A stretch of 64,000 nt of DNA from an uncultured Bacteroidales bacterium (GTDB lineage: Bacteria; Bacteroidota; Bacteroidia; Bacteroidales; DTU049). The notes under the pieces were generated by a model. That model did not search any database. It was not told the DNA's origin and saw nothing but the letters and a program-made list of their open reading frames with translations. Both the position numbers and the translations under genes were made by a program. The DNA lies in assembly GCA_964428185.1 (NCBI GenBank), contig CAYRXH010000005.1, positions 10,772 to 74,771 of the forward strand, read 5' to 3'. Numbering within the stretch: position 1 is the first letter of the stretch; every line of letters begins with the position of its first letter. Positions 1-47,796 of the stretch are shown here, one piece after another.

Positions 1-3000
1 TATTCAAAATTCTGGCGATAAAATAAAGAATATATATGATGTTGATCCTGCAACATTAAAAAGATATGATATTGATGAAGGTAAAGTAGGAGAAATTCAG
101 CAAAAGGCAAGTTCTGCTTGGAATATGGCAGGATTTTTTAATTATCATAATAGTCATTCTAATAATGTTCAAGAAACCCCAACAGCAAGAAAAATTGCTA
201 GTGCTACTGGACATAAATTTAATTATGGAGATTATGTTTCTACTGACATATATATGACTGATACACCTGGTATGTTGTTTGGCATGAGATATATGACTGA
301 TGAAGAATTAGCAGAGTTAAGGGATACTAAGTGGAATAAAGAATTGATAAAAAAATATGGTAAAGATTTAGTGAATTATTCGGCAGATGGTGCTGGTGAA
401 ATTGTAACAGTTAATGGTGAAACGCTTTTGTTATGGAAATCATTAACGTATGATGAAAATGGTATGCCACATTGGGAATGGGTGGATTTAAATAATTCTC
501 AAATACAAGGTCGTTTAAGACCTATATATGGACCAACTCCAATGTCAAGAACAGGATTTGGGGCATTTTCTAAAGGTTTATTTAATGTTATTGCTCAAGT
601 ACCTTCTATAGTTGGTTCAGCTATGGAGCAAATAGAAAATGCTATACTGTTAGGAGTTGATGAATTTATTGATTTGAACCCTAATGAATATTATATTGAA
701 AGTGTCGATGATAAAAGACCTTCTTATCTTTTACAAAATTTATCAGGAATGTTTATGTTCCATAATAGTTACAGAGGACAGCTTGATAGTTCATTTGGTA
801 GTGAGGGGTTTATGTTTAGTGCTGGAAATGTGATTGGTCAAGTTGCAGTTATGATAGCGTTATCAGCATTTTTAACTCCTGCGGCTGGATATTTATATGC
901 TGGTTTGAGTGCTGGCGATTCATTTAATCAAGTAGCAAAAGAAAGTAATGTTCCTGTTGATCAAAGACTTGCTATGTATGCTGGTAGTGTGATAACAGCT
1001 TTAGCTGTTGAAAGATTTGGTAGAATGATTGGATTAAGTCCTTTTGAACAATTTGGAGTAAGATCTGGCGTGTATAAAGGAATTACACAATATGCAAAAG
1101 AAATGGCGGAAAAGAGAACGGGAATTACAATACAACGAATGTATGAGGCATCTTTGAAGGATAAGAAGATATGGCAAAAATTATATATGAAAAATTTTTA
1201 CAAGCAAACATTTTCAAAATATGCCATGTATAATGCAATGGGTTCAGTGGAGGCGACATTAAGGCAATCAACTGGAGAAGGATTAGAAGAAGTTATGCAA
1301 CTTCCGCTTGATAATTTAATGTATGCTGTTCATGATTATGTAAATCAAGAAGAAATATTATATAGTCAAATAGCAGATGTAGAAGAAAGTAAGAGAAAAT
1401 TTTTATTGGATTATGATTATCGTGACAGTATGCTTAGAAATTATGTAAGAAATACATTTACATTAGGAAACATGTCATCACACTTTATACTAGGTTTTAT
1501 AGGTGGTTTAGGTGGTAGTTCAGTTGGTATGGCAATTAGAAAGTTGTCAAAAGACCCTAGCATAAAGAATCATAGGGAAATGAATTTGCTTACATTATAT
1601 ATGATATCTAAAGGCAATATAGAAAAGATAGAGAAAGCGGCTAAAGAATTATATTTAGGAAAAAAAGGAGGAAAAGCTCCATTATCTTTTACTCATACAG
1701 ATGGAACTACGCCAGTTAATATAGGAGATAAAAGTTTAAATGAAATAGCATATGAAGCATTTTTACAAGATATTAAATCTGTAAAACATATAATTGAAGA
1801 ATTAAAATTAAATTCTTTTAATATTAATGGGTCAATGGCTAGAGATAAAGAATTTTTACATGACGTATTAAATTTAAGTAATGAATACTTTATAGCTAAG
1901 ACCAAAGTAGAAAAGTTAAATGAAGAAATAGCAATATTACGTAATGAAAAAGGAAATGAAAGTACTATACAGTCTAAGGAAAAGGAGCTTGCAGATGCTA
2001 CTGCAAATATGAACGATGTTAAATCTAAAATACATGAATATACAACACCTGAATCAAACAGAAAACCATTTAGTAAACAAGCAAATGATAGAATAAGGGC
2101 ATATGCTTATGCAGAAGAAATATCTAAACAACAGTTAAAACAATTACGTGATAATCATGAGAAACTGTTAAAAGAAAAAAAGATAAAACCAGGAAGCAAA
2201 AAAGAGAAAGAGTTATTGCATAATATTGCATTAGAGGTTATGCAAAGTATGCCTAAATATAATGAAGTAAAGAAAACATGGACTAGTGTTGGTGAAAATT
2301 TTAATAAAGATGTATTAGAAGACCATAATAATAGTGTTAATGAGTTAGTATCAATATTTGATTCAATTGAGATTAGTATTTCTGAAGCACTTAAAAAAGC
2401 AGATCCTAGTGTTAATCTTAGTGGTGTACGTTTATCATCTATTATTGAACAAGGTAATATGTTACTATCAAGGATAGCAGAAAGAAAATATATTGATTTA
2501 CATAAGCAATTAGCAGCATCAGAAGGAATGGAATATGTTGTTGATCCAGATTTAGATGTAAGTGATTTAACATATGAAGCAGCACTTGAATTAAGAAATA
2601 ATATAAATAAAACATTTAGCGATAAAGGATTAAGATATTCTAATAAAGATGATGCAAATATTGATTTAATAAATATATTAGAATTGTATGCAGGTAAAGG
2701 AGGACTTGTTATTGATGGAAGTACTCAAAATGGACAGATATTGTTGGATTTATTAAGTAGAAATGGTTTTGAGTTTAATAGGATTTCAAAAGAAATAGAT
2801 AGTGGCAAATTGCCTGGTATAGAGAAAAATATTAATCATGTAGATAGCAATATTAGCATATCTAGTCCTGGTAAAGAAGGAAATAAATTGAATTTTTATG
2901 TTGCAGATTCATCCAAAATGTCCATTGAGGAAATATTATATTTACGTGGATTAATGATATACAATAACGTAAGAAATAATATTTTGGATGAAAATGGAAA

Positions 3001-6000
3001 TGTGAAAAAGGTAGATGTAGATATTGAGGCTAATATGATTGCATTAGATAATGTGATAGATGCATTAGCATTAATAAAAGCTAGGAGAGTATTTGATAGT
3101 GCGATGGGCAAGGTTAAAGAAAATGTACTTGATTTTCGTCAGGATAAAGATGGAGAAAGAATATATGATGAAGATGTACTTACTAATGATGATAAGATAG
3201 CAAATGAAGCTATAAAAGAAGAAATAGAAGTTTTAGAAAATGATGTTAATAAACTTATAGAACAATTAAAAGAAACAGATGTATATAAAAATTCTATAGC
3301 TGAAATTATTGCTTCATCAGAAGCTAAGAGAAAATTAGGTTTTTGGATAACAGCATTAACAGATGGTAATGAACCTTTGACAGCTGGTGTTCAGTTGTTA
3401 AAAAAAGCAAAGATTGGCAATATTGAATATTTGATAAAAGAGCTTATTGGGTTTAATAAGAAACTCATTAGAGAAGAAAATGAACTTAGAGAAAATGGAT
3501 ATAATACAGATAAAATGTCTCAAAGAAATAGAGTATTAATTAATAGTGCTATTGAAGTATTAGAAAGAGCAATATTTAAAGCGTACACAGATGTTGAAAA
3601 TCCTGGTGCAAAAGAATATATTAAAGAATGGATTAAGTTGCAGATGGATATCTATTTTACCCCAGTGATGAATGATAGTAATTCAAAGAATGTTTATTTC
3701 CTTAATTATTTTAGAAATCATATGGCGTATAATATAGTGGACCCATTACATCAAGGAGTGTCAAGTATAAAAGACGCATTTACTGAAGGTAAAAAAGCAC
3801 AAAACTATAATCCATCATATCATTGGATGGTTAATTATTTGCACACTATGATTAATAGTGATATGAGTTTACTTAAAAATAATATAACTTCAGCAATAGA
3901 AAATTTAAATACATATATTCCTTCACTTGAACAACAGTTAGTACAGATTTATATACAATCTGTTTTACAAAAAAAATATATTGATGACTTTGTTATTCAA
4001 TATGATATGGGAAAATATAAGCAAGCTATAGGAATGGTAGATGAGAATGGAGAAGTTGTAACTATAGAAAAAGCTAAGGAAATATATGCAAAGATGCAAG
4101 ATGGAAACTTAAAAACGGAGTATGCAAAGGTTATAGCAAAATATGAATCATCAATGTATCCTAAGTTTGAAAACGATGATACTATGTTTATGAATCATGG
4201 TGTAACATTAGTAGGAAATGCAGGAACTGGTAAAACAGAGATGACAGGATTAAGTGCGTTGATATATGCAATTAATAATGGGTTAAGTCATGTAAAATTA
4301 TCTGTTGTAGCGTCTGATATAGATTTGATAGAAAAGATTACAAATTCTATTAATAGAGTATTTGGAGAATATAATAAAAATAGTGAACAAAAAATAACAT
4401 TTGAAGTTAAAAAATCTTTATTGCAAGATGTATTATCTAAAGATGGTAATTCTGATGATAATTCATACATTATTAATTCATCTGATTTGGTTATTTTAGA
4501 TGAAGCAGGAAGATTGGATGATCAAATGTTGAAAAAAATAAGAAAATTACATAAAGCATCAAATATTAATAAACATACTGGATTTTTATTTTTAGGAGAT
4601 AATCAACAGATACAAGTGCATCCAAAAGATATGTCTGCTCAAGCATCAGGGATGAATGTAGCTATGCAAACAATTCATACTATGCCATTACAATATTCGT
4701 TTAGGAGTGGTAATACTATAATAAGTGAACTGAACAGGTGGTGGGGTGAAAGAGTATTTTCTTCACAATGGGTTGGTAATCTTGTTCCTACGCCTCCTAC
4801 AATGTATTATGAGGAATCATCTGATGGTATAAGAGATGGTGGTAAATATTATTCTTCAATAGATGAAATTGTAGAAGATTATATAAAAAGAAGAAAAGCG
4901 ATTGGTGAAAAAGCAATAATTGTATTTGAAACACAAGAAGCATTTGATGAGTATAGGAAAAAACATCCAGGTGTATTTAGTAATGATATAAGCGGAGTAA
5001 GGGTACTATATAATAATTTGCTTAGCACTGACCCTAATTTGTTACGTTCTATTCAGGGAGGAGAAGTTTCAGAAGTATATGTAGCAATAGAACCTGCAGA
5101 TACTCGTAATAGATTAGTGCCTGTTGATAAGACTGTATATCCAATGATGATGACAACTGCAACATCTAGGGCAATGAGATTTGTTGGTTCAATCATGGAT
5201 AATGCTAAATCATTAAATAAAAAAACAGATAAATCTTTTAAGATATACGAAAAACCTACTTCAGATAAAATTAAAGAAATAGCAGAAGCTAATAAAGAAT
5301 TAATAAGATTAGAAAATAAAAATGAGTTTCCAGACCTTCATCGTATAGTATTTTATAGTAGATATAATTATTTGTATGAAGACGAAGGAAAAGAGGAAGA
5401 CGAAGGAAAAGAGGAAGACGAAGGAAAAGAGGAAGACGAAGGAAAAGAGGAAGACAAAGGAAAAGAGAAAGACAAAGGAAAAGAGAAAGACAAAGGAAAA
5501 AAGGAAGGCGAAGGAAAAGGGAAAAGAAAATCTACAAATAAAAAAACAAAGAAAGAAAATAAAAAGAATTTTATTTTTCAAGAATCAGGATATAAAGCAA
5601 TGGCATATATTAATGGAGAATCAGTATCTGTTACTGTATTATTCCATTATATGGAAGGAGATGTGGAAAAGGTAATGACAGCAGAGCATGGTCCTTTATT
5701 AATTGATAATTTAATTGAAAAAAATCCAATAACAGAAGAAGCATATAGATCAGATACATATGTTAGTAGAGATAATTATAATTATGCAATAACGCCAGGA
5801 GTAGTATCAGAATCTGATTGGAATAAGGTATCATCAAAAAATAAACTTGTATTAGGCAAAATAAAGGCTATTAAGACAAAATTATTACAGGGTGCATATG
5901 ATGGGTCACTTTTAAAAGATTCTTCGTCTAAAGTCATTAAAATAATATATTCAAATATTCCCGAAAATTATGTAAATGCTGTTAGTCATGAATATAAAAA

Positions 6001-9000: not shown

Positions 9001-12000
9001 GTTGGATATTTTGGAAAATTATGTTAAGTATTCGGGTGCTATAGGTAATGTAATGCATAACAGTAGCGGTCGATTTTTGCCAGTTACTGTTGCAGGTTTT
9101 TTAACATCTGTGCAATTAGGTACTCAAGGACAATACATAAAAAATCTTATTAGTAAGATTAATAAGACTACTGCAGGACATCCTGTTAGAGATGGGGGTA
9201 TTGGACAAGCAATAGATTTTGTTTCTGATTTATGGATTCCTGTGTTTAGAAGTAGAGACCCAAAAAATATAAGTAATGGTTTACAAAAGAAAATAGATGA
9301 TTTAATAGGTGTTCTTAAATATAATGATATATATTCAAAAGAACTTGAAGAAAAAATAACACCTGTACTTAATTCAATTAAGGAAATATCTCAGTTTTAT
9401 AGAGAATTAATTGAACAATTTAGAGGTTCAAAAAATTTAACCTCTGATATAGATATAATGAATGTTCCTGAAGAAGATATTAATGTTGAAGAACAAAGAA
9501 ATAATATTACTCCATCTCCTTTGAATTTTGATATTACTTTTAATGTTCTATATGAAGTTTCACATGAGATGAAAATGTCACATAACAAGAATTACAGAAT
9601 TGATGGTACTGTTGATGCATATAATGTTCAAAGTGGTAATTCAGCAAAAGTTGTAAAGCAATTTGTAGGAAGTAGGGCACTTCCAAAAAAATATTCAAGA
9701 TTAAGAAAAGCAAAAGCAGAAGTTCGATATGCTTCAGAAAATAGAAATAGAGCATTAACTATGTTATTTAATCCTCTATTTCCTAGTGATAATGATGATC
9801 CACTGATTGATGTATATCAAATGGCGCATGTAACAGATTATGTAGAATATGGAAGGGGTGTTACTGATATGGAGCCAGGAGATGCTTTAATGGCAGAATT
9901 AACAGCTGTTATTACAGGATTAAAAAAAGATGATGCTATTATAGGTAAAAGTGTGTTTGGAGATAATAATCATCTATTTTTATATGAAGTTGAAGGTAAT
10001 ATGAAATATTATCTCCTTCAAGCATTAGCAGAGACTACTAGCGGAAAACCAATAAATTTAAATGAGAATGTATCATTAAATAATCCTATGAAATATACAT
10101 TGAAATTGTTAAAAAACGCTTTTATGTCATGCCATGTATCTCATGTCAATAGTGTTTTAAATTTATTGGATTCAATGAAGTCATTGCTTGTTAAGACCAA
10201 TATAGAAAGTTCAGCCAAAGGAGAACAAGATTACCTTATTGAGTTAGGTCTTGTAACAGGTCTTATTGAATATGTAGGAAAATTTGCGGTTTATAGTAAG
10301 AATCTTGAAGAAACAGCACACGAATATCATTTCAAGGATGTTATACTGAGAATGAATGACATATTAAAAAGACTTGAAACAATTTATGGAGATTCTAAAA
10401 ATACGTATGATAAGTTATTGGAGATGGGAGCAGTGGATGGTAAAGACATAAAATTATCTAATGGTAAATTAATTTTAGGTACAGCAGCTTCATTTAATAC
10501 ACAATCAGTATATAAAGAGAAAGGAGGATTTGAAAGATTTACAGTAGATGATTATGTATATAATGGTGTGAGCATGTATGGAACAGATAAGACAGAATCA
10601 ATAATGAAGTTCAATCCTACTACCATGAAAGAAGCTACAGATAAATTATGGGGGATGTTTGGGGTAGAAATGAATATTTATCAAAATTATATATATAATG
10701 TATTAAAACAGAATAGAACAAACAAAGATGTTAATAAGTTCTTTAGTTCAATAATTGGAACTGATGGTTCAGGAGTTATATTAAGAAAAGGAACAAATGA
10801 AGCTCCTATTTATAATCCTGGTATGTTTTTTTATTATTTGTATTATCATTTTGTTAATCAAGCAATGGATCATGCAATATCAGGGCATGCATTTAATTAT
10901 ACATCTCCAGAAGTAAATTCAATAAGAAAGAAAATGTTTGAAACTCCAGGAGAAAATGCAACTGCATCAGAAACAGGATTAGGAGAAACATATAAAGTAG
11001 CAATATTAAAAGATACAGAAATACCTGTAATGGTAGAAATGTATAATATGGCTGTAGAAGATTCAGAAAAGGTTACTGTTGAAGAAATAGCAACAATAAC
11101 GGATGGTGCTTCAATAGATACAGCAATAGGTAGAATGTTATTATTGAACAGTTTTGGAAATAAATTATCAGGATTAACAGCTACAGCATTAAAGTTTGCT
11201 TATGCAGACTATAATTGGCATACTGATGAAGTTGTTATTAAAAAAGATAGTCAATTATCTATTACACCTGAAGATGTATTACTATCTCCTGAAAAACATC
11301 TTGCATTAGAATATATTGCTTTAGCTCAATTCGATAAGTCGTTGGCAGATAAATTTATTGAAATATATAGTGATAATGTAAATAAAGGAAAAAGAAGGGA
11401 TCATGCATTTGCTGCTGCTGTGGAATATGCATATAATGTTATACAGGATATGCGAAAATCAAATCCAAAAATAATAGAAAATGTTATTGTTTCAATAACA
11501 CATCCTTCTGCTATTAAAATAGGTGCAAGGAATGTTAATAATATTACTTTGGATAATATTTTAGAAGCAAAACAACTAAATACAATTAGTCTTCATACTG
11601 AAAGTTTAAGAATGATTTTTAATCCTGATAGTGAAATTGAGAATAGCAGAGGTGAAGTATTATTTAAACAGGCATATCATTTAGGAAGCGGAGCACTTAA
11701 TCCTGATGATGCATTACAAATGGAAACTGAATTATCTGTGGCTATATTAAAGTCAATGGAAAAATTAGGGATGAATAAAGATGGTAAGTTGGATGAAGCC
11801 AATTTTACTGCAAAATCTATTATGGAAAAAGCATTGTCGAAAACTAGAACAGGGATGGAACAAACTATGACAGTTGGAACTGCAATAGATTTATTAGATG
11901 CCACAAGAAAACGCTTTGACTTGATTCAATTTGCTAATATAAATTCTAAGGTAATACAGTCATTAAGTAAAATGATAACAGAATCATCTGCTAAAATAAG

Positions 12001-24397: not shown

Positions 24398-24643
24398 TTA
24401 ATCTTGTTTTATCAAAATAAGTTTGCTTTTGTAACCTTTGCTTAGTTTATAATATTCGTCTGTTGTCATAAACTGATTCCAATCATTGCCTGTCCACCAA
24501 TAGGATTGGTCGAATTCTTCTTGTATCATCGGAAATGTTCTGTACTTTATTCCGTCAACTTTGAAGGTGTGGGTACGTTCTTTTCGGTTGGAACTGATGA
24601 ATTCAAACTCTCTTTTAGTAATACTTTGTTTGTATGTTTTCAT
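24398..24643 (-). CDS. Hypothetical protein (81 aa), last gene of the leftward block
   Basis: ORF with its own consensus promoter 34 nt upstream and the terminator downstream. Confidence 0.55.
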   Translation of the reverse strand: MKTYKQSITKREFEFISSNRKERTHTFKVDGIKYRTFPMIQEEFDQSYWWTGNDWNQFMTTDEYYKLSKGYKSKLILIKQD

Positions 24644-24676
24644 TATTTTGATTTTTTAGGGTTATTAATTATGATA

Positions 24677-24708
24677 CAAATATACAACAATTAATTTTAA
24701 TATCCAAA
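24677..24708 (-). promoter_or_regulatory. Bacteroidota-type promoter (-7 TATATTTG, -33 TTTG)
   Basis: On the - strand, TATATTTG (24677-24684) matches TAnnTTTG. TTTG (24705-24708) lies 20 nt upstream. The ATG is at 24643. Confidence 0.55.
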
Positions 24709-24717
24709 TTTTAGTTG

Positions 24718-25005
24718 TTAATTATATGTTAAAGTTTTTTGTTTTGAATTAAAGAAATTAACTACTCTTAACACATCAACGAAGCAGCACGTCTCTCTTG
24801 TCTGTTCATTATAGACAAGCTCTGAACGTGTTACCTTATAATTCCAACCAAACCCGATTGCGCCGAACACTTCAGTCATCTTCTCAATCCGCCATTGCGG
24901 ATTGATGTCTGTCTTACCTCTCAGCCGTCCGCCATCTATTACACGCTGTGCATCTGAAGGGACTTCTCTTAATTTTTTGTATAATTCTAAATTTTTTGTT
25001 TCCAT
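24718..25005 (-). CDS. Rad52/Sak-like single-strand annealing protein, N-terminal fragment (probably a truncated remnant)
   Basis: LREVPSDAQRVIDGGRLRGKTDINPQWRIEKMTEVFGAIGFGWNY resembles the N-terminal half of Rad52-family phage annealing proteins as I remember them. Composition switches from GC-rich to AT-rich at about 24771, and the ORF stops 17 codons later. Confidence 0.4.
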   Translation of the reverse strand: METKNLELYKKLREVPSDAQRVIDGGRLRGKTDINPQWRIEKMTEVFGAIGFGWNYKVTRSELVYNEQTRETCCFVDVLRVVNFFNSKQKTLTYN

Positions 25006-25020
25006 AATATTTAATTTTTT

Positions 25021-25839
25021 TTAATAAAATAATTCAACAAACTTATTATCTTCGTTTAACACGTATGTTGTGTCTGGTAGTATGCCGTCTTTGCCTACAT
25101 AACCTTTGACAGGCTTATAGGTGTCTTCATTAGCATCATAATAATCCAGCGATAGCACAGACCCGTTACCACCCCTCACACTTGAACCTACTCCGCCCTT
25201 AACTATTGAGTTGTCGCCGCCGACAACACCTGAATAGAGCCCGCCATATAATAATGATTCATTGCCACCAATGACAATAGACCCGTTGCCGCCCATGACA
25301 ACAGACCCGTTGCCGCCCATAACCTTAGACCAGTCAAGTCCTGCTACTATTGTTTCATCACCACCTACAATTAAAGAGAAGTTACCCGCTTTCATATACG
25401 TTAATTTTCCGCCGATAATTACAGCGTAGTCACCACCTATAGCCTTCTCTCCAATGCCTAACCTAACGATTGCACCAATTATACCTATGTGCCCATACAC
25501 GCTTGCAATAAGTTCTGTAGCTGTCAGTCTATCACCCACATACACTACTGTGCCCCCTTTGAACTTTATTAGTCCGTCCAGTGGTATTATGCCTGCTTCT
25601 TCTACTTCAAGAACAACCCATAAGGCTTCATCGCTCCAATCGAACAACGTACCATCACCACATCCCTTTAACGCTCCGTGCAAGCCGTTACCACATTCAG
25701 GGGTAAGCTCCCAGTCGGGAGCTTCTACCCAGCCTGATTGTGGATACTGAAAGCCTTTACGTGAACGATTGTTCTTGTCATTAGTCCGCAACACTAATAC
25801 GTGTCCGTCTTTTACTTTGAATTCTTTTTTTGTTTCCAT
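25021..25839 (-). CDS. Octapeptide-repeat solenoid protein, GC-rich paralog (12 GGxxSxhx units)
   Basis: I prefer the start METKKEFKVKDGHVLVL (25839), which is homologous to the starts of the 37377..38453 and 38528..39277 products. The N-terminal domain, repeats and C-terminal cap are shared. Confidence 0.8.
   Translation of the reverse strand: METKKEFKVKDGHVLVLRTNDKNNRSRKGFQYPQSGWVEAPDWELTPECGNGLHGALKGCGDGTLFDWSDEALWVVLEVEEAGIIPLDGLIKFKGGTVVYVGDRLTATELIASVYGHIGIIGAIVRLGIGEKAIGGDYAVIIGGKLTYMKAGNFSLIVGGDETIVAGLDWSKVMGGNGSVVMGGNGSIVIGGNESLLYGGLYSGVVGGDNSIVKGGVGSSVRGGNGSVLSLDYYDANEDTYKPVKGYVGKDGILPDTTYVLNEDNKFVELFY
25150..25437 (-). repeat. 12 uninterrupted octapeptide units (GGDYAVII ... GGNGSVLS)
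   Basis: Read directly from the translation. Confidence 0.9.
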
Positions 25840-25903
25840 GATTTTTTTTTGGTTATAAATTACATTCCACTGCAATAGTGGCACAACTCTTTATTTTCAA
25901 CTT

Positions 25904-26428
25904 CTACCGAGAACATACATCGCATACATGCTCATCACCATCAGTGGCATGCAGCTTGTGAGCGTGCAATCCGCATGTGTCACACACACGTAAGTTAAGG
26001 TTTTCGGTGCAAGATGGACAATAACGTGAACCATCTATTGCATCGTTCATTGTGTACTTGTATATGTATTTTTCGCATCTGTCGCATACTATGCAATACT
26101 TATGCAAGCAATCTTCGCAATAGTCACCGTCACTTGTTTTGAAAAGGGTTGTGTGGAGATATTTACAGCAATTGCACAAGGACAGGCCACGTTTCTCAGC
26201 GCAATCCGCACAAAGGGGGTGTTTGTTGTCTATCCATGCAACATCATCTTCATAAAAGTTTCCTTCGCAGCAATCGCAAGCAACAAGCCCCATCTCATCG
26301 TAACAACTCCAACATGCGATACCTCTTGGGGTATCATCATAGAAATCAATACTTACATTTATGCTTCTTCCGCAGATTTCACATTTGATTTCTTTGTCAT
26401 TAATTTCAATTTCATTTTTTGTTTTCAT
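25904..26428 (-). CDS. Protein made of five tandem zinc-ribbon (CxxC...CxxC) units
   Basis: CEIC..CWSC / CDCC..CADC / CNCC..CEDC / CDRC..CPSC / CDTC..CDVC, each unit about 33 aa. GC-rich. Confidence 0.7.
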   Translation of the reverse strand: MKTKNEIEINDKEIKCEICGRSINVSIDFYDDTPRGIACWSCYDEMGLVACDCCEGNFYEDDVAWIDNKHPLCADCAEKRGLSLCNCCKYLHTTLFKTSDGDYCEDCLHKYCIVCDRCEKYIYKYTMNDAIDGSRYCPSCTENLNLRVCDTCGLHAHKLHATDGDEHVCDVCSR

Positions 26429-26530
26429 AATTTTTAGATTTATTGGGGTTATTAATTTTTTTTGTTATTAGTATGTTCCTTTTTGTTTGTATGTTTTTAT
26501 GTTCATAAATTTATTTTATAATTGATTAAA

Positions 26531-26932
26531 TTAGATGAATTGTTTATAGTAAATATCGTATTCATTGCTAAAGCTATATACAATATTTTCTTCAACAATA
26601 ATACGTATTGATTCATTAATTAATTCTGAAGATTGATTAATTTTATATTGTGATTTTAATTCTTTTAATTTAGATATGGAATCACTACAATAAATAGCAT
26701 CTTCAACAATAAAAGACCTTTTATTATCACATACTTCTTCACTTTTCCATATTTCAACAAATGGGAATTTGTTTTTCTTGATTGGATAGGTTAGGTCACC
26801 ATAATAACAATTATCTATGACTGCAAATAATGAAGGTTTATCTGTACCATGTTCAATACTTCTTACAATATGTCCTATAATTGTATCTGGATATTTCTTT
26901 TTAATATCAGATACCTTGATATTAAATGCCAT
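26531..26932 (-). CDS. Hypothetical protein (133 aa)
   Basis: ORF only. Confidence 0.55.
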   Translation of the reverse strand: MAFNIKVSDIKKKYPDTIIGHIVRSIEHGTDKPSLFAVIDNCYYGDLTYPIKKNKFPFVEIWKSEEVCDNKRSFIVEDAIYCSDSISKLKELKSQYKINQSSELINESIRIIVEENIVYSFSNEYDIYYKQFI

Positions 26933-40893: not shown

Positions 40894-40961
40894 GTTTTTA
40901 TGATTTTATTGTTAACCAAAGGTTAGGGGGGTGCAGGGGGGATACTCCGTAAGTCCGTTTG

Positions 40962-40982: not shown

Positions 40983-41285
40983 ATGGCGTTATATATTTTC
41001 ATTTATATTATATCAATTATATCTATCATATTGTGGTTTTGTTTTATTCATATATTATTTATTATATATTTCAATTATTATATATATGTAAAGTTTCACT
41101 ACGTTGTTTGGTGTAAAGTTTAAGATTTCCCGACTTTAAAATCAGGAAATTCCGTCCGCATACCATTTATTACTCACTTGCGGAAATAGAACATGAAGTC
41201 ATTAAATCAATTTGCATTTGGAAAGTGGTACGAACTTAGCCCTAAAATTTTTTCAGAAAACCACTTCAGTATAAAAATAAAGTAT

Positions 41286-41293
41286 TAACTTTG
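41286..41293 (+). promoter_or_regulatory. Bacteroidota-type -7 promoter element (TAACTTTG) for the rightward ASCH cassette
   Basis: TAACTTTGCAAAAGG lies 57 nt upstream of the ATG at 41350. Confidence 0.45.
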
Positions 41294-41349
41294 CAAAAGG
41301 AATTTAAATCAAAGGAAGATATTAAAGTAAACAATTATTCAGTCGGAAA

Positions 41350-41718
41350 ATGAAAGTATTATTGTCCATAAAACCAGAGTTCGCTTTCAAAATCTTTGAA
41401 GGCAAAAAGAAATTTGAATTTCGTAAAGTAATTTTCAAAAATCCAAATGTAAAGACAGTTGTTGTTTACGCGTCATCACCTGTTCAAAGGGTCATTGGAG
41501 AATTTGAAATTGCAGACATCCTAAGTTATGACCCAAGTGAAATTTGGAGACAGACAAAAAAATATTCAGGAATTTCAGAAGATTTTTTCTATGAGTATTT
41601 CGCGAATAGAGAAATTGCACACGCAATAAAAATTAAGAATCCCAAAAAGTATAAACAACCATTACACTTGCAAGACAACTACAATGTTGTTCCGCCACAA
41701 TCGTATGTTTACTTGTAA
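41350..41718 (+). CDS. ASCH-domain (PUA-like) protein
   Basis: MKVLLSIKPEFAFKIFEGKKKFEFRK...VVVYASSPVQRVIGEFEI...IWRQTKKYSGISEDFFYEYF...AHAIKI matches the remembered ASCH pattern (LSIKPeya.kI..G.K..EfRr ... iYat.P...ivG.f.i). Confidence 0.6.
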   Translation: MKVLLSIKPEFAFKIFEGKKKFEFRKVIFKNPNVKTVVVYASSPVQRVIGEFEIADILSYDPSEIWRQTKKYSGISEDFFYEYFANREIAHAIKIKNPKKYKQPLHLQDNYNVVPPQSYVYL

Positions 41719-41747
41719 ACATTACAATTATTATATTAGAATAAAAG

Positions 41748-42257
41748 ATGAAATTCAAACAATCAAAAAACATAAATGGGAAAAATGTATATAAATATTT
41801 AGAAGACCGTCATAGTATGGTAGGAGTAACGGTACGATTATATGATATTAGTAATATTATATCTAAAGAATTAGGATATAGGGAATCAGAGGTTCGTTAT
41901 ATTATAGAGTTTATGTTGCGATATAGTAGTTATATATTAGGATTGGGATATGGATTTCGATTTCGAGAATTTATGGTACATCCTGAATTGAAATACATAG
42001 ATTATTTACGATTTTTAGAAAAAGATATATTATTAAAGTTTTTATTAGAATATGATATGGAGCAAGTATATAGCAATCATCATGGATTAGATAAGAATGT
42101 ATTAGGAGAGATACGGACACAGCGTTTATTATTGCGTAGGTTAAGCATAAGAAATTTTAAGCGTATCATATCTAAGAAGGAAAGTGTACAACTACTAAAG
42201 CGTTTATCAGATAAAAAGCATAGGGGTGGTATAAAGCGATTAAAATTGAATAAATGA
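41748..42257 (+). CDS. Hypothetical protein, possibly HU/IHF-like DNA-binding
   Basis: ISKELGYRESEVRYIIEFMLRYSSYILGLGYGFRFREF loosely parallels the HU pattern ia...gls...v..vl..l...i...L..G..v.l.gfG.F. The tail is basic. Confidence 0.3.
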   Translation: MKFKQSKNINGKNVYKYLEDRHSMVGVTVRLYDISNIISKELGYRESEVRYIIEFMLRYSSYILGLGYGFRFREFMVHPELKYIDYLRFLEKDILLKFLLEYDMEQVYSNHHGLDKNVLGEIRTQRLLLRRLSIRNFKRIISKKESVQLLKRLSDKKHRGGIKRLKLNK

Positions 42258-42324
42258 TCTTTAATATTAAATTAGGAATTATTAATTTAAAAGATAATTT
42301 CTAATAAAATAATTATATAAAATA

Positions 42325-42987
42325 TTAAAAGTTGTAATTAACATAGCAATCAGATTTTAAGAATACCCAGAAGTAAGCATGATATTTACGTGCGTGAATT
42401 TGTTTTTTCCATTTAGAGCCGTTAAAGGCATTAATTCTATTTTTTGCAATAAGTATAAAAAGGTCTTTAGGATAAAATCCTATTTTTAAAGCCATATTCA
42501 TAATTAGAACATGTGAAAAATGATTTTTACCACTTGCGACCACATCTTGGCATTTAAAGACGAGTATTCCATTGCTTTGGAGTATTCTATAAATTTCTTT
42601 AATTGAGTTGTAATAATGATTTTTAAGTTCATCAAAAGAATTATAGGACTCAAATCTTTTAGCAATAATACTACTACCCATTTTATTATTTTTATATGTA
42701 CTACCTGCAATAGTGAAAGGAGGGTCAAACATAACACTTTTCATCGATTGATTTTCAAAAGGTAGGTTAGAGCTATCAGCTTTTAGAACATTATTGTTAT
42801 GAGGATATAAATCTGTTTTATATATAGGTTTAGGTAAATTTTTCCAGAATTGTCCTTTACTATATGTACAATCGAGGTCAAATTTTTCAATATTATAGAG
42901 ATGCATTATATTTCTAATTATTTCTTCATTGCTAAAAGATATTGATATAATTGGTTTAAATCCGAATAAAGTATTTTTAATTTCCAT
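42325..42987 (-). CDS. DNA methyltransferase (N6-adenine/N4-cytosine type, DPPF motif)
   Basis: SVMFDPPFTIAG is a motif IV DPPF. It is followed by NGILVFKCQD. Length 220 aa. Confidence 0.55.
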   Translation of the reverse strand: MEIKNTLFGFKPIISISFSNEEIIRNIMHLYNIEKFDLDCTYSKGQFWKNLPKPIYKTDLYPHNNNVLKADSSNLPFENQSMKSVMFDPPFTIAGSTYKNNKMGSSIIAKRFESYNSFDELKNHYYNSIKEIYRILQSNGILVFKCQDVVASGKNHFSHVLIMNMALKIGFYPKDLFILIAKNRINAFNGSKWKKQIHARKYHAYFWVFLKSDCYVNYNF

Positions 42988-43030
42988 TTATATTTAAATA
43001 ATTAATTATAGAATATATTAATGATTTATA

Positions 43031-43378
43031 TTATCGTTGACTCATGTATTTAGTAACTGTATGCTCAAATTCCTCGAAGCTGTTACAAACAGCAACCATA
43101 TATCCTGCATAATACAGTTTTGTGATTATTTCAGTTTGTGATTTAGTTGGTTTGTTATTTCCTGCCTTTAGCTCAATAAACAATCCTGCATGCACCTTTG
43201 TCTGTTCGGCAATGAACAGGTCAGGGACTCCTGCAAGCACACCCTCTGCCTTCATCCTTACAGCGGTAACCTTGTTCCTATGCCCGCCGTTGGGTATGGC
43301 AAAGATAAGGCTATCGGGGTACTGATACCTGAACCACCTTACACATGCCACTTGTAAGTTATGCTCTCTTTGTATCAT
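43031..43378 (-). CDS. VRR-NUC domain nuclease
   Basis: EHNLQVACVRWF...FAIPNGGHR......MKAEGVLAGVPDLFI....GLFIELKAGNNKPTKSQ..I...L...GY.VAVCNSFEEF fits the VRR-NUC layout (PNGG, G.PD, ElK, Q). GC-rich. Confidence 0.65.
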   Translation of the reverse strand: MIQREHNLQVACVRWFRYQYPDSLIFAIPNGGHRNKVTAVRMKAEGVLAGVPDLFIAEQTKVHAGLFIELKAGNNKPTKSQTEIITKLYYAGYMVAVCNSFEEFEHTVTKYMSQR

Positions 43379-43382
43379 GGTA

Positions 43383-43754
43383 TCATGTTATATTATTCCA
43401 TGTTCTTCCGTCGTAAGTAACGACGTTATTAAACAAATCAATAATTATGCTATCATCTATCCAATCAAACTCATAAATATATTTATTTAATAAGCACATA
43501 TTTATTGGGCTTATATATAAATATCTGTTTTCACGAGCCATAAGAATAAGTTTAATAAAATTCATAAATTCTTTTATTATATATCTTTCTGCAGGATTAA
43601 CTCCATAAAATGTTTTTTCTTTATTACCTAAAAAATGAAGTTCTACTTTGTATTTTCGGACGTTGTACTGAACAGTAGAATACATTGTTGCAACCTTTAT
43701 ACCGTTATGATTGTAGGTTGTAAGGTTTCGTTCTTCTTTTTTTTGCAAAATCAT
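43383..43754 (-). CDS. Hypothetical protein (123 aa)
   Basis: ORF with a 4-nt overlap with the upstream gene. Confidence 0.5.
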   Translation of the reverse strand: MILQKKEERNLTTYNHNGIKVATMYSTVQYNVRKYKVELHFLGNKEKTFYGVNPAERYIIKEFMNFIKLILMARENRYLYISPINMCLLNKYIYEFDWIDDSIIIDLFNNVVTYDGRTWNNIT

Positions 43755-43981
43755 AAGTACCTCCTGACTGTTAATTCTGCTTCTGTTAATTTCCTTCTGG
43801 GGGGTCTCTTGGTGTAATTAAGGCACATAACCGCTGTGGCGTTGTCTATCAAGACAGGATTATGTGGTGACAACACGCAATTATTAGCCACGCCCCTGCT
43901 AATGTGGCAATGAACACATGTTAAGCAACACTTGATGCGTGTGCCCTTATCAGTCACGTATTGCTGTGCCTTCAGGAGCAT
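43751..43981 (-). CDS. Small Cys-rich hypothetical protein (76 aa)
   Basis: KCCLTCVHCH...NNC...MC. GC-rich. Confidence 0.45.
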   Translation of the reverse strand: MLLKAQQYVTDKGTRIKCCLTCVHCHISRGVANNCVLSPHNPVLIDNATAVMCLNYTKRPPRRKLTEAELTVRRYL

Positions 43982-43984
43982 CGA

Positions 43985-44215
43985 CTATTTTTTTAGAATT
44001 CTAAAAACCTCGTCTGTCGTTGTCCCTATGTATTCAGCAATTTGTTCCACCCACTCTGCCTTGAAGATGCGTACATCTTCGTTCATGAGTTTGCGGAATT
44101 GTTCACGCCCCGAAGGGGTGTTGCTGTATAGCATACGCCACAATTCTCTCTTGCACGTCCGCCTGTCTATGCCTCTGTCTCGGCAATAACTTACTATATT
44201 TCTGATTTTGTACAT
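43985..44215 (-). CDS. Small helix-turn-helix-like protein (76 aa)
   Basis: The C-terminal VEQIAEYIGTTTDEVFRILKK looks like an HTH. GC-rich. Confidence 0.4.
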   Translation of the reverse strand: MYKIRNIVSYCRDRGIDRRTCKRELWRMLYSNTPSGREQFRKLMNEDVRIFKAEWVEQIAEYIGTTTDEVFRILKK

Positions 44216-44292
44216 AATGATGTATTTATTGTTAAACCATAAATTAAATTCAATTTTTTATATTTATCTTTCATACCAATACGCAATGTTTA

Positions 44293-45237
44293 TTATGCAT
44301 AAATATTATTAACATATTTTTCTGCTAAGAAAATATAATCATTATACTCTATTATTTGTTTTTTTGTATAACCTTTTTCTTTTCCAATTTTTTTAATATT
44401 TGTTTTCCAAAAATCAATTGAATATATATGACATCCTATTTTAATTTCTGAATGAGAGGCTAAGTTAAAAAAGTCCTTACTGCCGTGTATTAACAGAGGA
44501 GAAACATTCCACATGTCGTTTTTTATTAGAGCATCACCGTAAACATTAGCAAAGCCACAAATTATTGCATTACCATAAACACTGGCATTTCCATATATTC
44601 TTGCGTTTCCATATATACATGCATTATCAAAAACACATGCATAACCAAAGATTTTAGCATTGTCATATACTTTCGTATCCCCATATACTTTTGCATTTTC
44701 AGAAATATTTACATCCCCAAATACTCTTGCACTGCCAAATATTCTTGCATTATCTGATATTCTTGCGTTATCTAATAATCTTGAATTATCATAAATTTTT
44801 GCATTATCAAGTATTATTACATTGCCAAAAACATTTGCATTTCCTGTAATTTTTACATTACCCGATACTTTTGCATTATCATATACATTCGCATTATCAT
44901 AAACACAAGCATTACCTGAAATTCTAGCATTTCCAAAAATAACAGCATTATTAAATATTTCTACATCATCGTATATTTTTGCACTTTCAAATACTTTGGC
45001 ATTCCCAAAGATTTTTACATTGTCATATATCTTTGCATTACCTGATATCGAAGCATTGTCATATACACATGCATTATCTGTTACCCATGAGTTATCATTT
45101 TGATTTAAATTATTTTCTGATTGTATCCATCCGCCTTTATCACCTTTTTTAATATCACAAAAATCTCGAATTGCTTCAATTTGTATCAATGTTATACCAT
45201 TGACCTCTTTTGTTGTGTTTGTTAGTTTATACTTCAT
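44293..45237 (-). CDS. Hexapeptide-repeat (left-handed beta-helix type) protein, first gene of the leftward block
   Basis: 31 uninterrupted hexads (TDNACV YDNASI SGNAKI ... YGDALI, aa 53-238). They are flanked by a 52-aa N-terminal and a 76-aa C-terminal non-repeat domain. Confidence 0.8.
   Translation of the reverse strand: MKYKLTNTTKEVNGITLIQIEAIRDFCDIKKGDKGGWIQSENNLNQNDNSWVTDNACVYDNASISGNAKIYDNVKIFGNAKVFESAKIYDDVEIFNNAVIFGNARISGNACVYDNANVYDNAKVSGNVKITGNANVFGNVIILDNAKIYDNSRLLDNARISDNARIFGSARVFGDVNISENAKVYGDTKVYDNAKIFGYACVFDNACIYGNARIYGNASVYGNAIICGFANVYGDALIKNDMWNVSPLLIHGSKDFFNLASHSEIKIGCHIYSIDFWKTNIKKIGKEKGYTKKQIIEYNDYIFLAEKYVNNIYA
44524..45081 (-). repeat. 31 hexapeptide units, consensus (Y/F)(G/D)NA(K/R)(I/V)
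   Basis: Counted in the translation. Confidence 0.9.
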
Positions 45238-45583: not shown

Positions 45584-45714
45584 GATATTATAATAATATC
45601 TAGTTATAATATCTAGTATAATATCTAGTATAATATCTAGTTATAATATCTAGTATAATATCTAGTTATAATATCTAGTTATAATATCTAGATCTAGTAT
45701 CTAGTATTATAATC
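45582..45714. repeat. Iteron array: a 21-bp palindrome, then seven 12/13-bp units CTAGT(T)ATAATAT, ending in the CTAGATCTAG palindrome
   Basis: CTAG starts at 45600, 45613, 45625, 45637, 45650, 45662, 45675, 45688, 45694 and 45701. Every full unit contains TATAAT. An A12 run follows at 45715-45726. Confidence 0.9.
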
Positions 45715-45879: not shown

Positions 45880-46413
45880 ATGAAAGTTTATGCAGCAAGA
45901 GGATATGTAGAATCTTTACATTATGAAGATATAGAGTTTATAGATACAAAATCTGGGACAGAAACAATAAAAACAATTAAAAAGTTAGAATGTAGAATAA
46001 GAACTATTGAAGATGATATAATACTTCCTATTACATTTTGGGGGCAAAAATCTATGGATTTGTTTTTAGATATTCAAGAAGGTTCACCAGTTGTTTGTTC
46101 TTTTGCTATTGCATCAAAATATTACAAAGATAGATATTATATTAACCTTAAAGGATATAAAATAGAACGTTATCTTGGATTAACTGCTGATGAAAAAGAA
46201 GAAAGAAGTGCTAAGCATAGACAACAGATTGCGGATAACAAGAAAGAAGTGGAAAACAGAACACTTGAATATATAGACCCTATATATGGTAACAAAACTG
46301 CACAAGAAATAGCTGAAATGATGAATGATACAGAAAATTGGGAAAGTGAAGATGATTTGAAATATAAACAAAATACTGTAAACAAACATGATGATGAAAA
46401 ATTACCATTTTAA
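45880..46413 (+). CDS. ssb: Single-stranded DNA-binding protein (OB fold with an acidic C-terminal LPF tip)
   Basis: ITFWGQKSMDLFLDIQEGSPVVCSFAIASKYY parallels the SSB v.vwgk.Ae....l.KGs.v.veG.l....w. The protein ends ...HDDEKLPF, like the canonical DDDIPF tail. Confidence 0.55.
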   Translation: MKVYAARGYVESLHYEDIEFIDTKSGTETIKTIKKLECRIRTIEDDIILPITFWGQKSMDLFLDIQEGSPVVCSFAIASKYYKDRYYINLKGYKIERYLGLTADEKEERSAKHRQQIADNKKEVENRTLEYIDPIYGNKTAQEIAEMMNDTENWESEDDLKYKQNTVNKHDDEKLPF

Positions 46414-46438
46414 TAAACAGATATATAATTAAAATATT

Positions 46439-46780
46439 ATGAATATGAACAAAGTTATTTTAAGAGAAAATGTAATATTGGGAGAACTAATAGATGTAAA
46501 ACCTAAAGATAGTACAATTATTTTGCCTAATGAAAAACAAAAGGATAAATATTTTTTTGATGAACATCCAATTCAAGTTAAAGTAAAATATGTTGGTATA
46601 AACAAAGAAACATATTCTTTTTTTGATGGAAAGACTGGCACACCATATAAAATAAAACCAGGTGATATTTTATATCTTGATAGATTTCCTTCCGAAAACG
46701 AATATGTACTTTTGAATAAAAATATATATGTAAAAGTTTTAGTTGGTAATATTTTATGTGTTATTTCTGAAAAAGAATAA
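46439..46780 (+). CDS. Possible GroES/Gp31-like co-chaperonin
   Basis: KVILRENVILGELIDVKPKDSTIILPNEKQ and IKPGDILYLDRF...YVKVLVGNILCVI loosely align with GroES (RPLHDRVIVKR...GGIVL; VKVGDIVIF...ILAIV). Confidence 0.3.
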   Translation: MNMNKVILRENVILGELIDVKPKDSTIILPNEKQKDKYFFDEHPIQVKVKYVGINKETYSFFDGKTGTPYKIKPGDILYLDRFPSENEYVLLNKNIYVKVLVGNILCVISEKE

Positions 46781-46845
46781 AACATTTTACCTATATTGCA
46801 ACCATAATGAAATAAATTTAGTATTAATCAAAAAATAAAGTTAAT

Positions 46846-47280
46846 ATGAAAAATCTTACAAAAGCAGAATTACTACAAAAATTGGTAGTTGAATTATCTA
46901 AAAATAGTTTATATTCAAAATCAATTTTTAAAAAATATGAAAAAATAGGATTAGAGATTCGCAATCTTGACACTAAATTAGTTGATATTGAAAATAAATT
47001 AAAAAAAGAAATTGTAGATGTTAATCCTGAAATGACAGTAGAAAAGATAAATGAATATGTGAAAACAAATAAAATTCCATCAAAACAAAGACCAATTATA
47101 GAAAAGATGATTAGTGAAGTCTATAAAGAAATGCATAATCATACAGTTAATATCCCAAAATTTAATTGGATAGATTTAAGAAAAATGAATGTAGGTATGG
47201 TAGATTTGTTGAAAAGTTATGGATTAGTAGATGAAAGGAAATTTATGTTTTTATTTAAAACTCATAATCGAGTCATATAG
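46846..47280 (+). CDS. Hypothetical protein (144 aa)
   Basis: ORF with a strong terminator directly downstream. Confidence 0.55.
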   Translation: MKNLTKAELLQKLVVELSKNSLYSKSIFKKYEKIGLEIRNLDTKLVDIENKLKKEIVDVNPEMTVEKINEYVKTNKIPSKQRPIIEKMISEVYKEMHNHTVNIPKFNWIDLRKMNVGMVDLLKSYGLVDERKFMFLFKTHNRVI

Positions 47281-47323
47281 AAAATCCTATTGTTCATATC
47301 CTTATTTACATGTCGGATTTTCA

Positions 47324-47352
47324 AGGAGTGTAATTTTACACTCCTTTTTTTA
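47324..47352 (+). terminator. Intrinsic terminator inside the rightward block
   Basis: AGGAGTGTA (47324-47332) / TACACTCCT (47337-47345), a 4-nt loop, then TTTTTTT. Confidence 0.8.
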
Positions 47353-47409
47353 TTCTTATTCTGAAAATAAATTATATTTTTTATTATAATTTAATTTTTT
47401 TTAAAAAAA

Positions 47410-47442
47410 TTTGTTTATACAAAATTATGTTTTATATATTTG
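47410..47442 (+). promoter_or_regulatory. Bacteroidota-type promoter (-33 TTTG, -7 TATATTTG)
   Basis: TTTG at 47410-47413, a 21-nt spacer, TATATTTG at 47435-47442, then the ATG at 47470. Confidence 0.55.
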
Positions 47443-47469
47443 CAAAAAGAACATTATATAACTTGGAAT

Positions 47470-47796
47470 ATGGAATATAAGAAAAATTGGATAGAAGAAG
47501 GTATGGAGGTTGCCCACAAAGATAATCCTCAACAAAAGTTGATTGTTAATAGAATTATAAGACAAAATAAACCAATAAAAGTTCAAGAAAATAATGATTG
47601 GGTTACAGTTACAAAATCATTTGTTATAGCTGTTGAGGTGCATTGGTGGGAGAAAGATTTAGATACAGGTCAAAACAAATTACAAACTGCAAAGTTCCAT
47701 ACAAGATTGCTAATCCCTTGGCAAGTAGCTATGGAGTCTTTTACTAAAGGGGTTCATGTAATCGAAAATTTTATCAAAAGAATAAATAAAATATGA
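47470..47796 (+). CDS. Hypothetical protein (108 aa)
   Basis: The ORF track starts at a TTG (47440) that lies inside the promoter -7 element. The ATG at 47470 (MEYKKNW) is more plausible. Confidence 0.55.
   Translation: MEYKKNWIEEGMEVAHKDNPQQKLIVNRIIRQNKPIKVQENNDWVTVTKSFVIAVEVHWWEKDLDTGQNKLQTAKFHTRLLIPWQVAMESFTKGVHVIENFIKRINKI

Follow-up and report, generated by a model that had tools for sequence, protein, structure and literature searches.

A solitary gene for an ASCH-domain protein, carried by a very divergent phage, is a recent and precise capture from a bacterial operon of the (PIN)-GNAT-EVE + ASCH type (PDC-M11, also termed GevT/GevA), taken up without the gene for the predicted toxin that accompanies it almost everywhere else. 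The gene lies in a 64,000-nt stretch of DNA, hereafter the window, comprising positions 10,772 to 74,771 (forward strand) of contig CAYRXH010000005.1 of GenBank assembly GCA_964428185.1, which is assigned to an uncultured Bacteroidales bacterium; the region of interest extends from 41,286 to 44,215 of the window. We lean modestly towards the reading that this region consists of two separate additions to a conserved phage backbone, and that the first of these, the orphan ASCH gene, provides the phage with a counter-defence antidote to the GNAT-EVE toxin of a host.

The contig (C5; 77.8 kb, 28.3% GC) was binned with a 2.85-Mb metagenome-assembled genome (MAG) of 38.2% GC (bin G000). The window encodes a giant open reading frame (ORF) of 5,441 aa, a terminase, a portal, a major head protein, and a DnaB-type helicase, and the phage appears to be non-integrated, i.e., not a prophage. 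By its existing label, it is a putative, very divergent crAss-like phage; a megablast comparison of the region with 50,697 phage records returned no nucleotide match. All seven ORFs that an initial annotation had named in this region (among them those for the ASCH protein, a 169-aa protein, a DPPF methyltransferase, and a VRR-NUC nuclease) are present, with positions and strands unchanged, and the ASCH, N6_N4_Mtase, and VRR_NUC identities all score above the Pfam curated cutoffs.

Origin of the solitary ASCH gene

The captured segment aligns without gaps over 385 nt to bacterial loci (L012-L016 and L022) at 96.9% nucleotide identity, which indicates a recent transfer; the best species-level match is a Parafilimonas MAG (96.6%). 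Homology starts 17 nt before the ASCH ATG, inside the 3' end of the PDC-M11A gene, and stops at the stop codon. In the matching bacterial operons, which sit inside mobile/defence islands, ASCH is the last gene, preceded by genes for a 150-aa protein, an AAA_17 protein, and the 506-aa PDC-M11A protein (E 2e-217). Beside the phage gene, both the AAA_17 gene and the PDC-M11A partner are missing; a search of the window and of the entire 2.85-Mb bin found no PDC-M11A homologue and, beyond the 17 nt of its 3' end, no trace of the gene.

The substitutions that have accumulated in the ASCH gene suggest that it has been maintained as a protein-coding sequence. Compared with L012, the phage copy has 10 synonymous differences and a single non-synonymous one (D86N), giving a ratio of non-synonymous to synonymous polymorphism (pN/pS) of 0.03. 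When the comparison is polarised with L022, five changes are specific to the phage: four synonymous third-position changes of C to A/T and D86N (G to A). Such a ratio of four synonymous to one non-synonymous substitution on the phage branch has a probability of P = 0.006 under neutrality, and the codon pattern thus reveals purifying selection since capture. All of these changes are from GC to AT, in line with the composition of the phage. Moreover, an independent Logan contig (L057) crosses the 3' junction of the segment with 0 mismatches.

As judged from profile matches, the phage protein is the B (antitoxin) component of the (PIN)-GNAT-EVE + ASCH module. Its score against Pfam PF04266 is 25.2 bits (cutoff 21.2), the PADLOC PDC-M11B profile PDLC04425 covers it at full length (residues 1-122, E 1e-51), and the GxKxxExR motif is kept, with G18, K20, E23, and R25 invariant in the homologue alignment. 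The earlier description of ASCH as a domain found beside modification and restriction genes was therefore too generic. Among 3358 homologues at E<1e-10, the best (P0005, on 17 bacterial contigs) is 99% identical in amino acid sequence. The 'GevA antitoxin' of E. coli phage PhiR47_2 (GenBank PV340567.1) is 54% identical, and the product of the overlapping gene upstream of it, 'GevT toxin', matches PDC-M11A (E 2e-133). The closest solved structure is that of ZmASCH (E 3e-10 over residues 3-121). A close-relative scan of 2.9 M viral contigs in IMG/VR found no other close copy of the protein, an alignment-based scan of IMG/VR found viral ASCH copies at 50-59% identity, and an exact look-up found no further contig with the identical protein. 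It should also be mentioned that in the NCBIfam model NF008917, a ribosomal protein L22 fusion, the C-terminal 'unknown domain' matches this ASCH subfamily (E 1e-14), which hints at a ribosome- or RNA-linked activity.

The pairing of ASCH with PDC-M11A was surveyed in 35 species genomes carrying close ASCH relatives and in 80 IMG/VR contigs, mostly prophage-like. In the bacterial set, an A homologue lies directly upstream of ASCH in approx. 29 loci and within approx. 1 kb in three more, one locus has only a remnant of A, and two are cut by contig ends; A is thus upstream in approx. 32 of the 33 evaluable loci. In the viral set, from which one contig cut by its end has to be set aside, the figure is 78 of 79. 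A solitary intact ASCH gene is therefore exceptional. In bacterial and phage loci, A and B share an overlap of 4-23 nt, the A proteins of the loci that were fetched are 506-510 aa long with an N-terminal PIN domain, an AAA_17/18 gene lies upstream, and hsdM/hsdS adjoin one PDC-M11 copy in a genome of the MAG's order. These loci fit the published description of (PIN)-GNAT-EVE proteins (Bell, Wolf & Koonin 2020, PMC7641849), in which an ASCH gene almost always and an AAA_17 gene often accompany the A gene, the long PIN form is found near type I restriction-modification (R-M) systems, the short form occurs in proteobacterial prophages, and the whole is predicted to be a toxin-antitoxin or defence module linked to type I R-M.

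Two atypical copies emerged from the surveys. The sole other toxin-less viral copy (L201, IMGVR_UViG_2799112742_000002, 2070-3866) has ASCH fused C-terminally to a MORN/YwqK-like repeat protein of 598 aa. In the bacterial 'solo' locus L019 (4840-5369), an intact ASCH gene follows the last 54 codons of PDC-M11A and adjoins a PDC-M38 (AbiL-like) pair; this locus shows a toxin lost and an antidote retained in a defence island.

Phage backbone and the site of capture

The gene downstream of ASCH, encoding the 169-aa protein, has a different history. A HMMER pass through 1.8 billion representative proteins yielded three distant relatives (35-44% identity), and in four related contigs (L007, L008, L009, and L011) a 169-like gene immediately precedes, on the same strand, a block encoding SSB and proteins of 113, 144, and 118 aa, which are homologues of the window genes at 45880-47796. 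Neither L007 nor L008, the two contigs with the upstream side present, has an ASCH gene upstream of the 169-like gene. By this synteny, the 169-aa gene belongs to the backbone and is not a partner of ASCH. The protein has no family match in Pfam, PHROG, or NCBIfam, no PDB match with a 4-sequence profile, and a word-index search found only the protein itself. The proposal that it is HU-like was not borne out: an HU/IHF-like identity finds no profile or PDB match, and the AlphaFold2 (AF2) single-sequence model, of low confidence (pLDDT 47), is all-helical and without beta arms. A comparison with GevT likewise showed no similarity.

Upstream of the captured segment lies a Bacteroidota-type -7 element, TAACTTTG, 39 nt before the segment and 56 nt before the ASCH start codon. 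Its call as a promoter is made because of its position and because a similar element, ATTATCTTTGC, is found just upstream of the 169-like gene in relatives; on these grounds it probably drove the 169-aa gene in the ancestral arrangement. Thus, the promoter proposed in the initial annotation is present as an element with a counterpart in relatives, but the extended word TANNTTTGCA is not enriched (8 matches vs. 8.7 expected). Further upstream, a G-rich motif, GGGGGGTGnAGGnGGGATAC, marks the start of a divergent intergenic region in the window (40925-40948), in L007 (approx. 2571-2593), and in L008 (approx. 551-573), three distantly related phage contigs whose DNA around the motif cannot be aligned. 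In L008 (1380-1470) and L011 (300-380), an AT-rich tandem array separates the 169-like gene from SSB; its counterpart in the window is an 11-bp iteron array (45590-45700) between the inserted leftward block and SSB. The repeat units differ among the three phages, and the shared presence of such arrays supports the interpretation of the region before SSB as an origin. From the conserved gene order and motifs in relatives, the ancestral order can therefore be reconstructed as G-rich intergenic region, promoter, 169-like gene, iteron/origin region, and SSB. In this reconstruction, the ASCH gene was added between the promoter and the 169-aa gene, and six leftward genes entered downstream of the 169-aa gene, before the iteron region.

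How the gene may have been captured is hinted at by a 51-nt sequence upstream of the promoter, which agrees at 49 of 51 positions (96%) with the outermost 51 nt of two MAG contigs (the 3' end of C40 and the 5' end of C125). A diverged copy ends a third MAG contig (3' end of C16), and the flanks differ among the MAG contigs; a search of 40 related genomes did not find the full 51-mer. To judge from these placements, the sequence probably represents one end of a multicopy insertion sequence (IS) or miniature inverted-repeat transposable element (MITE) that was collapsed by the assembler. The shared sequence connects the phage with the co-binned MAG and points tentatively to an exchange mediated by an IS. 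In addition, an exact 12-nt direct repeat, CAATTATTATAT (41072-41083 and 41725-41736), encloses a stretch of 641 nt with the IS-like end, the promoter, and ASCH. The repeat may be a target duplication, microhomology, or a chance occurrence in AT-rich DNA; as an insertion mark it conflicts with the ancestral-looking promoter.

Features of the region (coordinates within the window)
Feature	Coordinates	Strand	Basis or remark
51-nt IS/MITE-end-like sequence	41087-41137	+	matches termini of MAG contigs
Bacteroidota-type -7 promoter element TAACTTTG (probable)	41286-41293	+	sequence, position
Captured segment: 17 nt of PDC-M11A 3' end and complete ASCH gene	41333-41717	+	nucleotide identity, hidden Markov model (HMM)
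ASCH ORF (PDC-M11B/GevA-type), 122 aa	41350-41718	+	PDC-M11B HMM, Pfam ASCH
169-aa basic helical protein, lineage-conserved backbone gene	41748-42257	+	synteny in relatives
220-aa DPPF amino-methyltransferase (PF01555 family), orphan	42325-42987	-	Pfam, PHROG, AF2
115-aa stand-alone VRR-NUC nuclease, PD-(D/E)xK, GC 42%	43031-43378	-	Pfam, phrog_824/5702
123-aa ORF, no relatives, GC 26%	43383-43754	-	phage-typical GC
76-aa Cys-rich ORF, ORFan, GC 45.5%	43751-43981	-	ORF list, GC
76-aa ORF, weak C-terminal helix-turn-helix (HTH)-like stretch, ORFan, GC 43%	43985-44215	-	ORF list, GC
314-aa hexapeptide-repeat protein, first gene of leftward block	44293-45237	-	beyond the initially annotated region, same insertion

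The leftward block

The second addition consists of six leftward genes (42325-45237), encoding a methyltransferase, a VRR-NUC protein, three small ORFs, and a hexapeptide-repeat protein, which by comparison with relatives were inserted downstream of the 169-aa gene, ahead of the origin/SSB region. The block is missing from the same junction in related phages, and the 314-aa gene is counted in it because it falls in the interval separating the 169-aa gene from the iteron/SSB region, two elements that relatives carry side by side. The block appears to have its own promoter, and its members are ordinary phage accessory genes.

The methyltransferase scores barely above the Pfam cutoff for PF01555 (27.2 bits vs. 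26.7) and matches phrog_24333 'DNA methyltransferase' at E 1e-60; it has 1417 homologues, the best at 74% identity. Its DPPF motif (D88-P89-P90-F91) is invariant in 50 aligned homologues, whereas the motif I-like stretch FDLDCTYSKG is non-canonical with respect to FxGxG, although D39, C40, T41, Y42, and G45 are invariant. An AF2 model built from 50 sequences (pLDDT 80, pTM 0.80) gave 248 Foldseek hits in the PDB at E<=1e-3 with TM scores of approx. 0.45-0.5; the top 50 are mostly S-adenosylmethionine (SAM, AdoMet)-dependent methyltransferases, and the matches include Trm11, CcrM, TTHA0409, and an N4-cytosine enzyme. An AdoMet-binding fold is thus supported by the predicted model. This orphan enzyme of the N6A/N4C type, with a putative DNA or RNA substrate, probably protects against restriction. 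The VRR-NUC protein (32.5 bits against PF08774, cutoff 23.8) has relatives in 971 phage records (best 50% identity) and in IMG/VR (best 54%), and it aligns to the phage structure 4QBL over GVPDL (D53) ... IELK (E69, K71), so that the catalytic residues are present; it probably processes branched DNA. For neither 76-aa ORF were relatives found among phages, IMG/VR contigs, or 400 genomes from the phylum, and the HTH-like character ascribed to the last of them comes down to sub-threshold hits.

The composition of the region is not uniform. The stretch from 43031 to 44215 has 38.2% GC, compared with a mean of 28.1% across the window (standard deviation 3.5; z = 2.9), so the GC-richer interval that had been noticed by eye (43.03-44.22 kb) is real, but the rise is patchy, with the 26% GC gene for the 123-aa protein between the GC-rich VRR-NUC gene and the 76-aa ORFs. 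By composition, a foreign origin of the GC-rich genes is suggested. The DNA of this stretch, however, gave no real match and no donor in 300 genomes of the order, and their recent exchange is therefore unproven. The notion of a patchwork of recently exchanged genes thus applies to ASCH, which is recent, and is in keeping with the absence of the leftward block from relatives, but does not extend to a recent donor for the GC-rich genes. The only other equally GC-rich stretch of the window is 24400-26600 (approx. 43% GC; ORF 25021-25884, minus strand), and 30 nt within it (24992-25021) match a promoter-proximal region on MAG contig C49 at 29/30 positions.

A putative counter-defence role

The proposed role would have arisen when a 385-bp piece of an AAA_17 / PIN-GNAT-EVE / ASCH operon was taken up with the toxin gene left behind and placed behind a phage promoter, ahead of the first backbone gene (that of the 169-aa protein). 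Made during infection, the phage ASCH protein would then keep the GNAT-EVE toxin of the host harmless at the very stage at which infection would otherwise set it free. One way could be to bind the toxin in the manner of the resident antitoxin (type II-like), another to strip off enzymatically an acetyl mark written by the GNAT domain, and with either option the abortive-infection response would fail. Removal of an acetyl mark is conceivable because ASCH proteins are N4-acetylcytidine (ac4C)/N-acyl amidohydrolases: all 19 of the tested ASCH proteins, ZmASCH included, deacetylate ac4C-tRNA in vitro (2026 preprint, bioRxiv 10.64898/2026.02.27.708502), and YqfB is described as an N4-acylcytosine amidohydrolase (PMC6972931). 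The more specific idea, that PIN-GNAT-EVE acetylates tRNA or another nucleic acid upon sensing infection and that the phage ASCH removes this mark in trans, is tentative and on balance doubtful. If it were true, it would offer natural evidence for PDC-M11/GevAT as a writer-eraser (DarTG-like) anti-phage system, and the phage gene would be the first anti-defence gene assigned in the crAss-like lineage that reverses nucleic-acid acetylation.

Several points weigh against the antidote role. The lack of enrichment of TANNTTTGCA leaves the promoter motif statistically unsupported, and for the 5' junction of the inserted segment this assembly is the sole source. In the bacterial A proteins, Pfam detects PIN_3 only, with no GNAT or EVE domain, and there is no PDB sequence match; their GNAT-EVE assignment is taken from PMC7641849, whose authors instead proposed a role for ASCH in the binding of modified DNA or in the regulation of expression. 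The toxin and antitoxin roles of GevT/GevA are based on one GenBank annotation and comparative genomics, and a literature search found no experimental study of PDC-M11/GevAT. Finally, PDC-M11 is found in 2 of the 60 genomes related to the co-binned MAG and not in the MAG itself, and a real host carrying the system is therefore hypothetical.

Other explanations of the ASCH gene have to be weighed against this role. The protein might serve the phage independently of defence, as an ac4C eraser or a single-stranded RNA (ssRNA) nuclease that remodels host tRNA/rRNA or acts in nucleotide salvage. The deacetylation of ac4C in tRNA by ASCH proteins (bioRxiv 10.64898/2026.02.27.708502), the activity of ZmASCH as an ssRNA RNase (as reported in a reference given in PMC7641849), and the fusion of the same subfamily to ribosomal protein L22 would all agree with it, and purifying selection is compatible with any function. 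Nonetheless, the subfamily is almost never found without PDC-M11A, which argues that its activity is tied to that partner, and the 99% identity to the cognate's own ASCH suggests that the gene was taken for that specificity; such an independent role is rather improbable. Even less can be said for a selectively neutral hitch-hiker of recent arrival, carried in, for example, with an IS/MITE fragment. The IS-end-like 51-mer common to the co-binned MAG does lie 196 nt upstream, two related phages do not have ASCH, and no other close copy is found among the 2.9 M viral contigs. However, the ORF is intact, precisely excised from its operon, and the first gene behind the promoter, and its own-branch changes (four synonymous AT-ward vs. 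one non-synonymous, P = 0.006) make a gene with no role for the phage quite unlikely.

The initial annotation had treated ASCH and the 169-aa protein as a cassette, which could represent a new toxin-antitoxin or nucleic-acid-modification pair, and indeed the two genes are co-directional, 29 nt apart, and have one promoter in common. The pair is, however, conserved nowhere else: the homologues of the 169-aa gene in four contigs belong to the SSB/origin backbone and have no ASCH neighbour, a 169-like neighbour occurs at none of the 115 ASCH loci examined, where the usual partner is PDC-M11A, and the 169-aa protein is unrelated to GevT. A two-gene cassette is thus very unlikely. As for an assembly chimera of phage and bacterial reads, the contig does come from a metagenome bin of different GC (28% vs. 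38%) and its 5' junction is seen in this assembly only. Yet phage sequence is found on both flanks, the segment differs by at least 3% from every bacterial copy with AT-biased substitutions, a drift that matches the phage composition and argues against such an artefact, and the independent contig L057 spans the 3' junction without a mismatch; a chimera is scarcely credible.

This phage offers a natural experiment on PDC-M11, in which the ASCH half alone was captured very recently and kept under purifying selection. The capture argues that PDC-M11, which is widespread in defence islands and prophages, really acts against phages, with ASCH as its neutralising component. The phage and bacterial ASCH genes, which encode 99% identical proteins, provide a ready cognate pair for toxicity rescue. 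Since few counter-defence genes are known from crAss-like phages, the phage ASCH gene is a concrete candidate. The corrected map should also aid annotation of this very divergent lineage, with the 169-aa gene placed in the backbone and the leftward block at a variable junction near the putative origin.

The methyltransferase and the VRR-NUC protein share family and catalytic motifs with orphan PF01555 methyltransferases and with stand-alone VRR-NUC nucleases (PDB 4QBL), both common in phages; the methyltransferase differs in its non-canonical motif I (DLDCTYSKG), which precedes DPPF. The phage ASCH protein resembles its counterparts in (PIN)-GNAT-EVE + ASCH (+AAA_17) operons (PDC-M11, GevT/GevA) as a full-length member of the B family, 99% identical and with GxKxxExR kept, but it stands alone behind a phage promoter, without the (PIN-)GNAT-EVE partner and AAA_17. 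With ZmASCH (PDB 5GUS/5GUQ) and the YqfB-type ASCH amidohydrolases it has a fold family in common, at low identity, and its activity is predicted accordingly by homology. Phage antitoxins are known to act in counter-defence: the Dmd protein of T4 acts against RnlA/LsoA, and phage PhiTE captures or mimics the ToxI antitoxin RNA. As in these cases, the neutralising half of a host toxin-antitoxin or abortive-infection module is carried without the toxin, and, as with captured ToxI, the copy was drawn directly from the bacterial system. In contrast to Dmd and ToxI, the antidote would here be a protein with a probable amidohydrolase fold, directed at a system known from genes alone. The phage ASCH gene would thus encode a further phage-borne antitoxin of the known kind.

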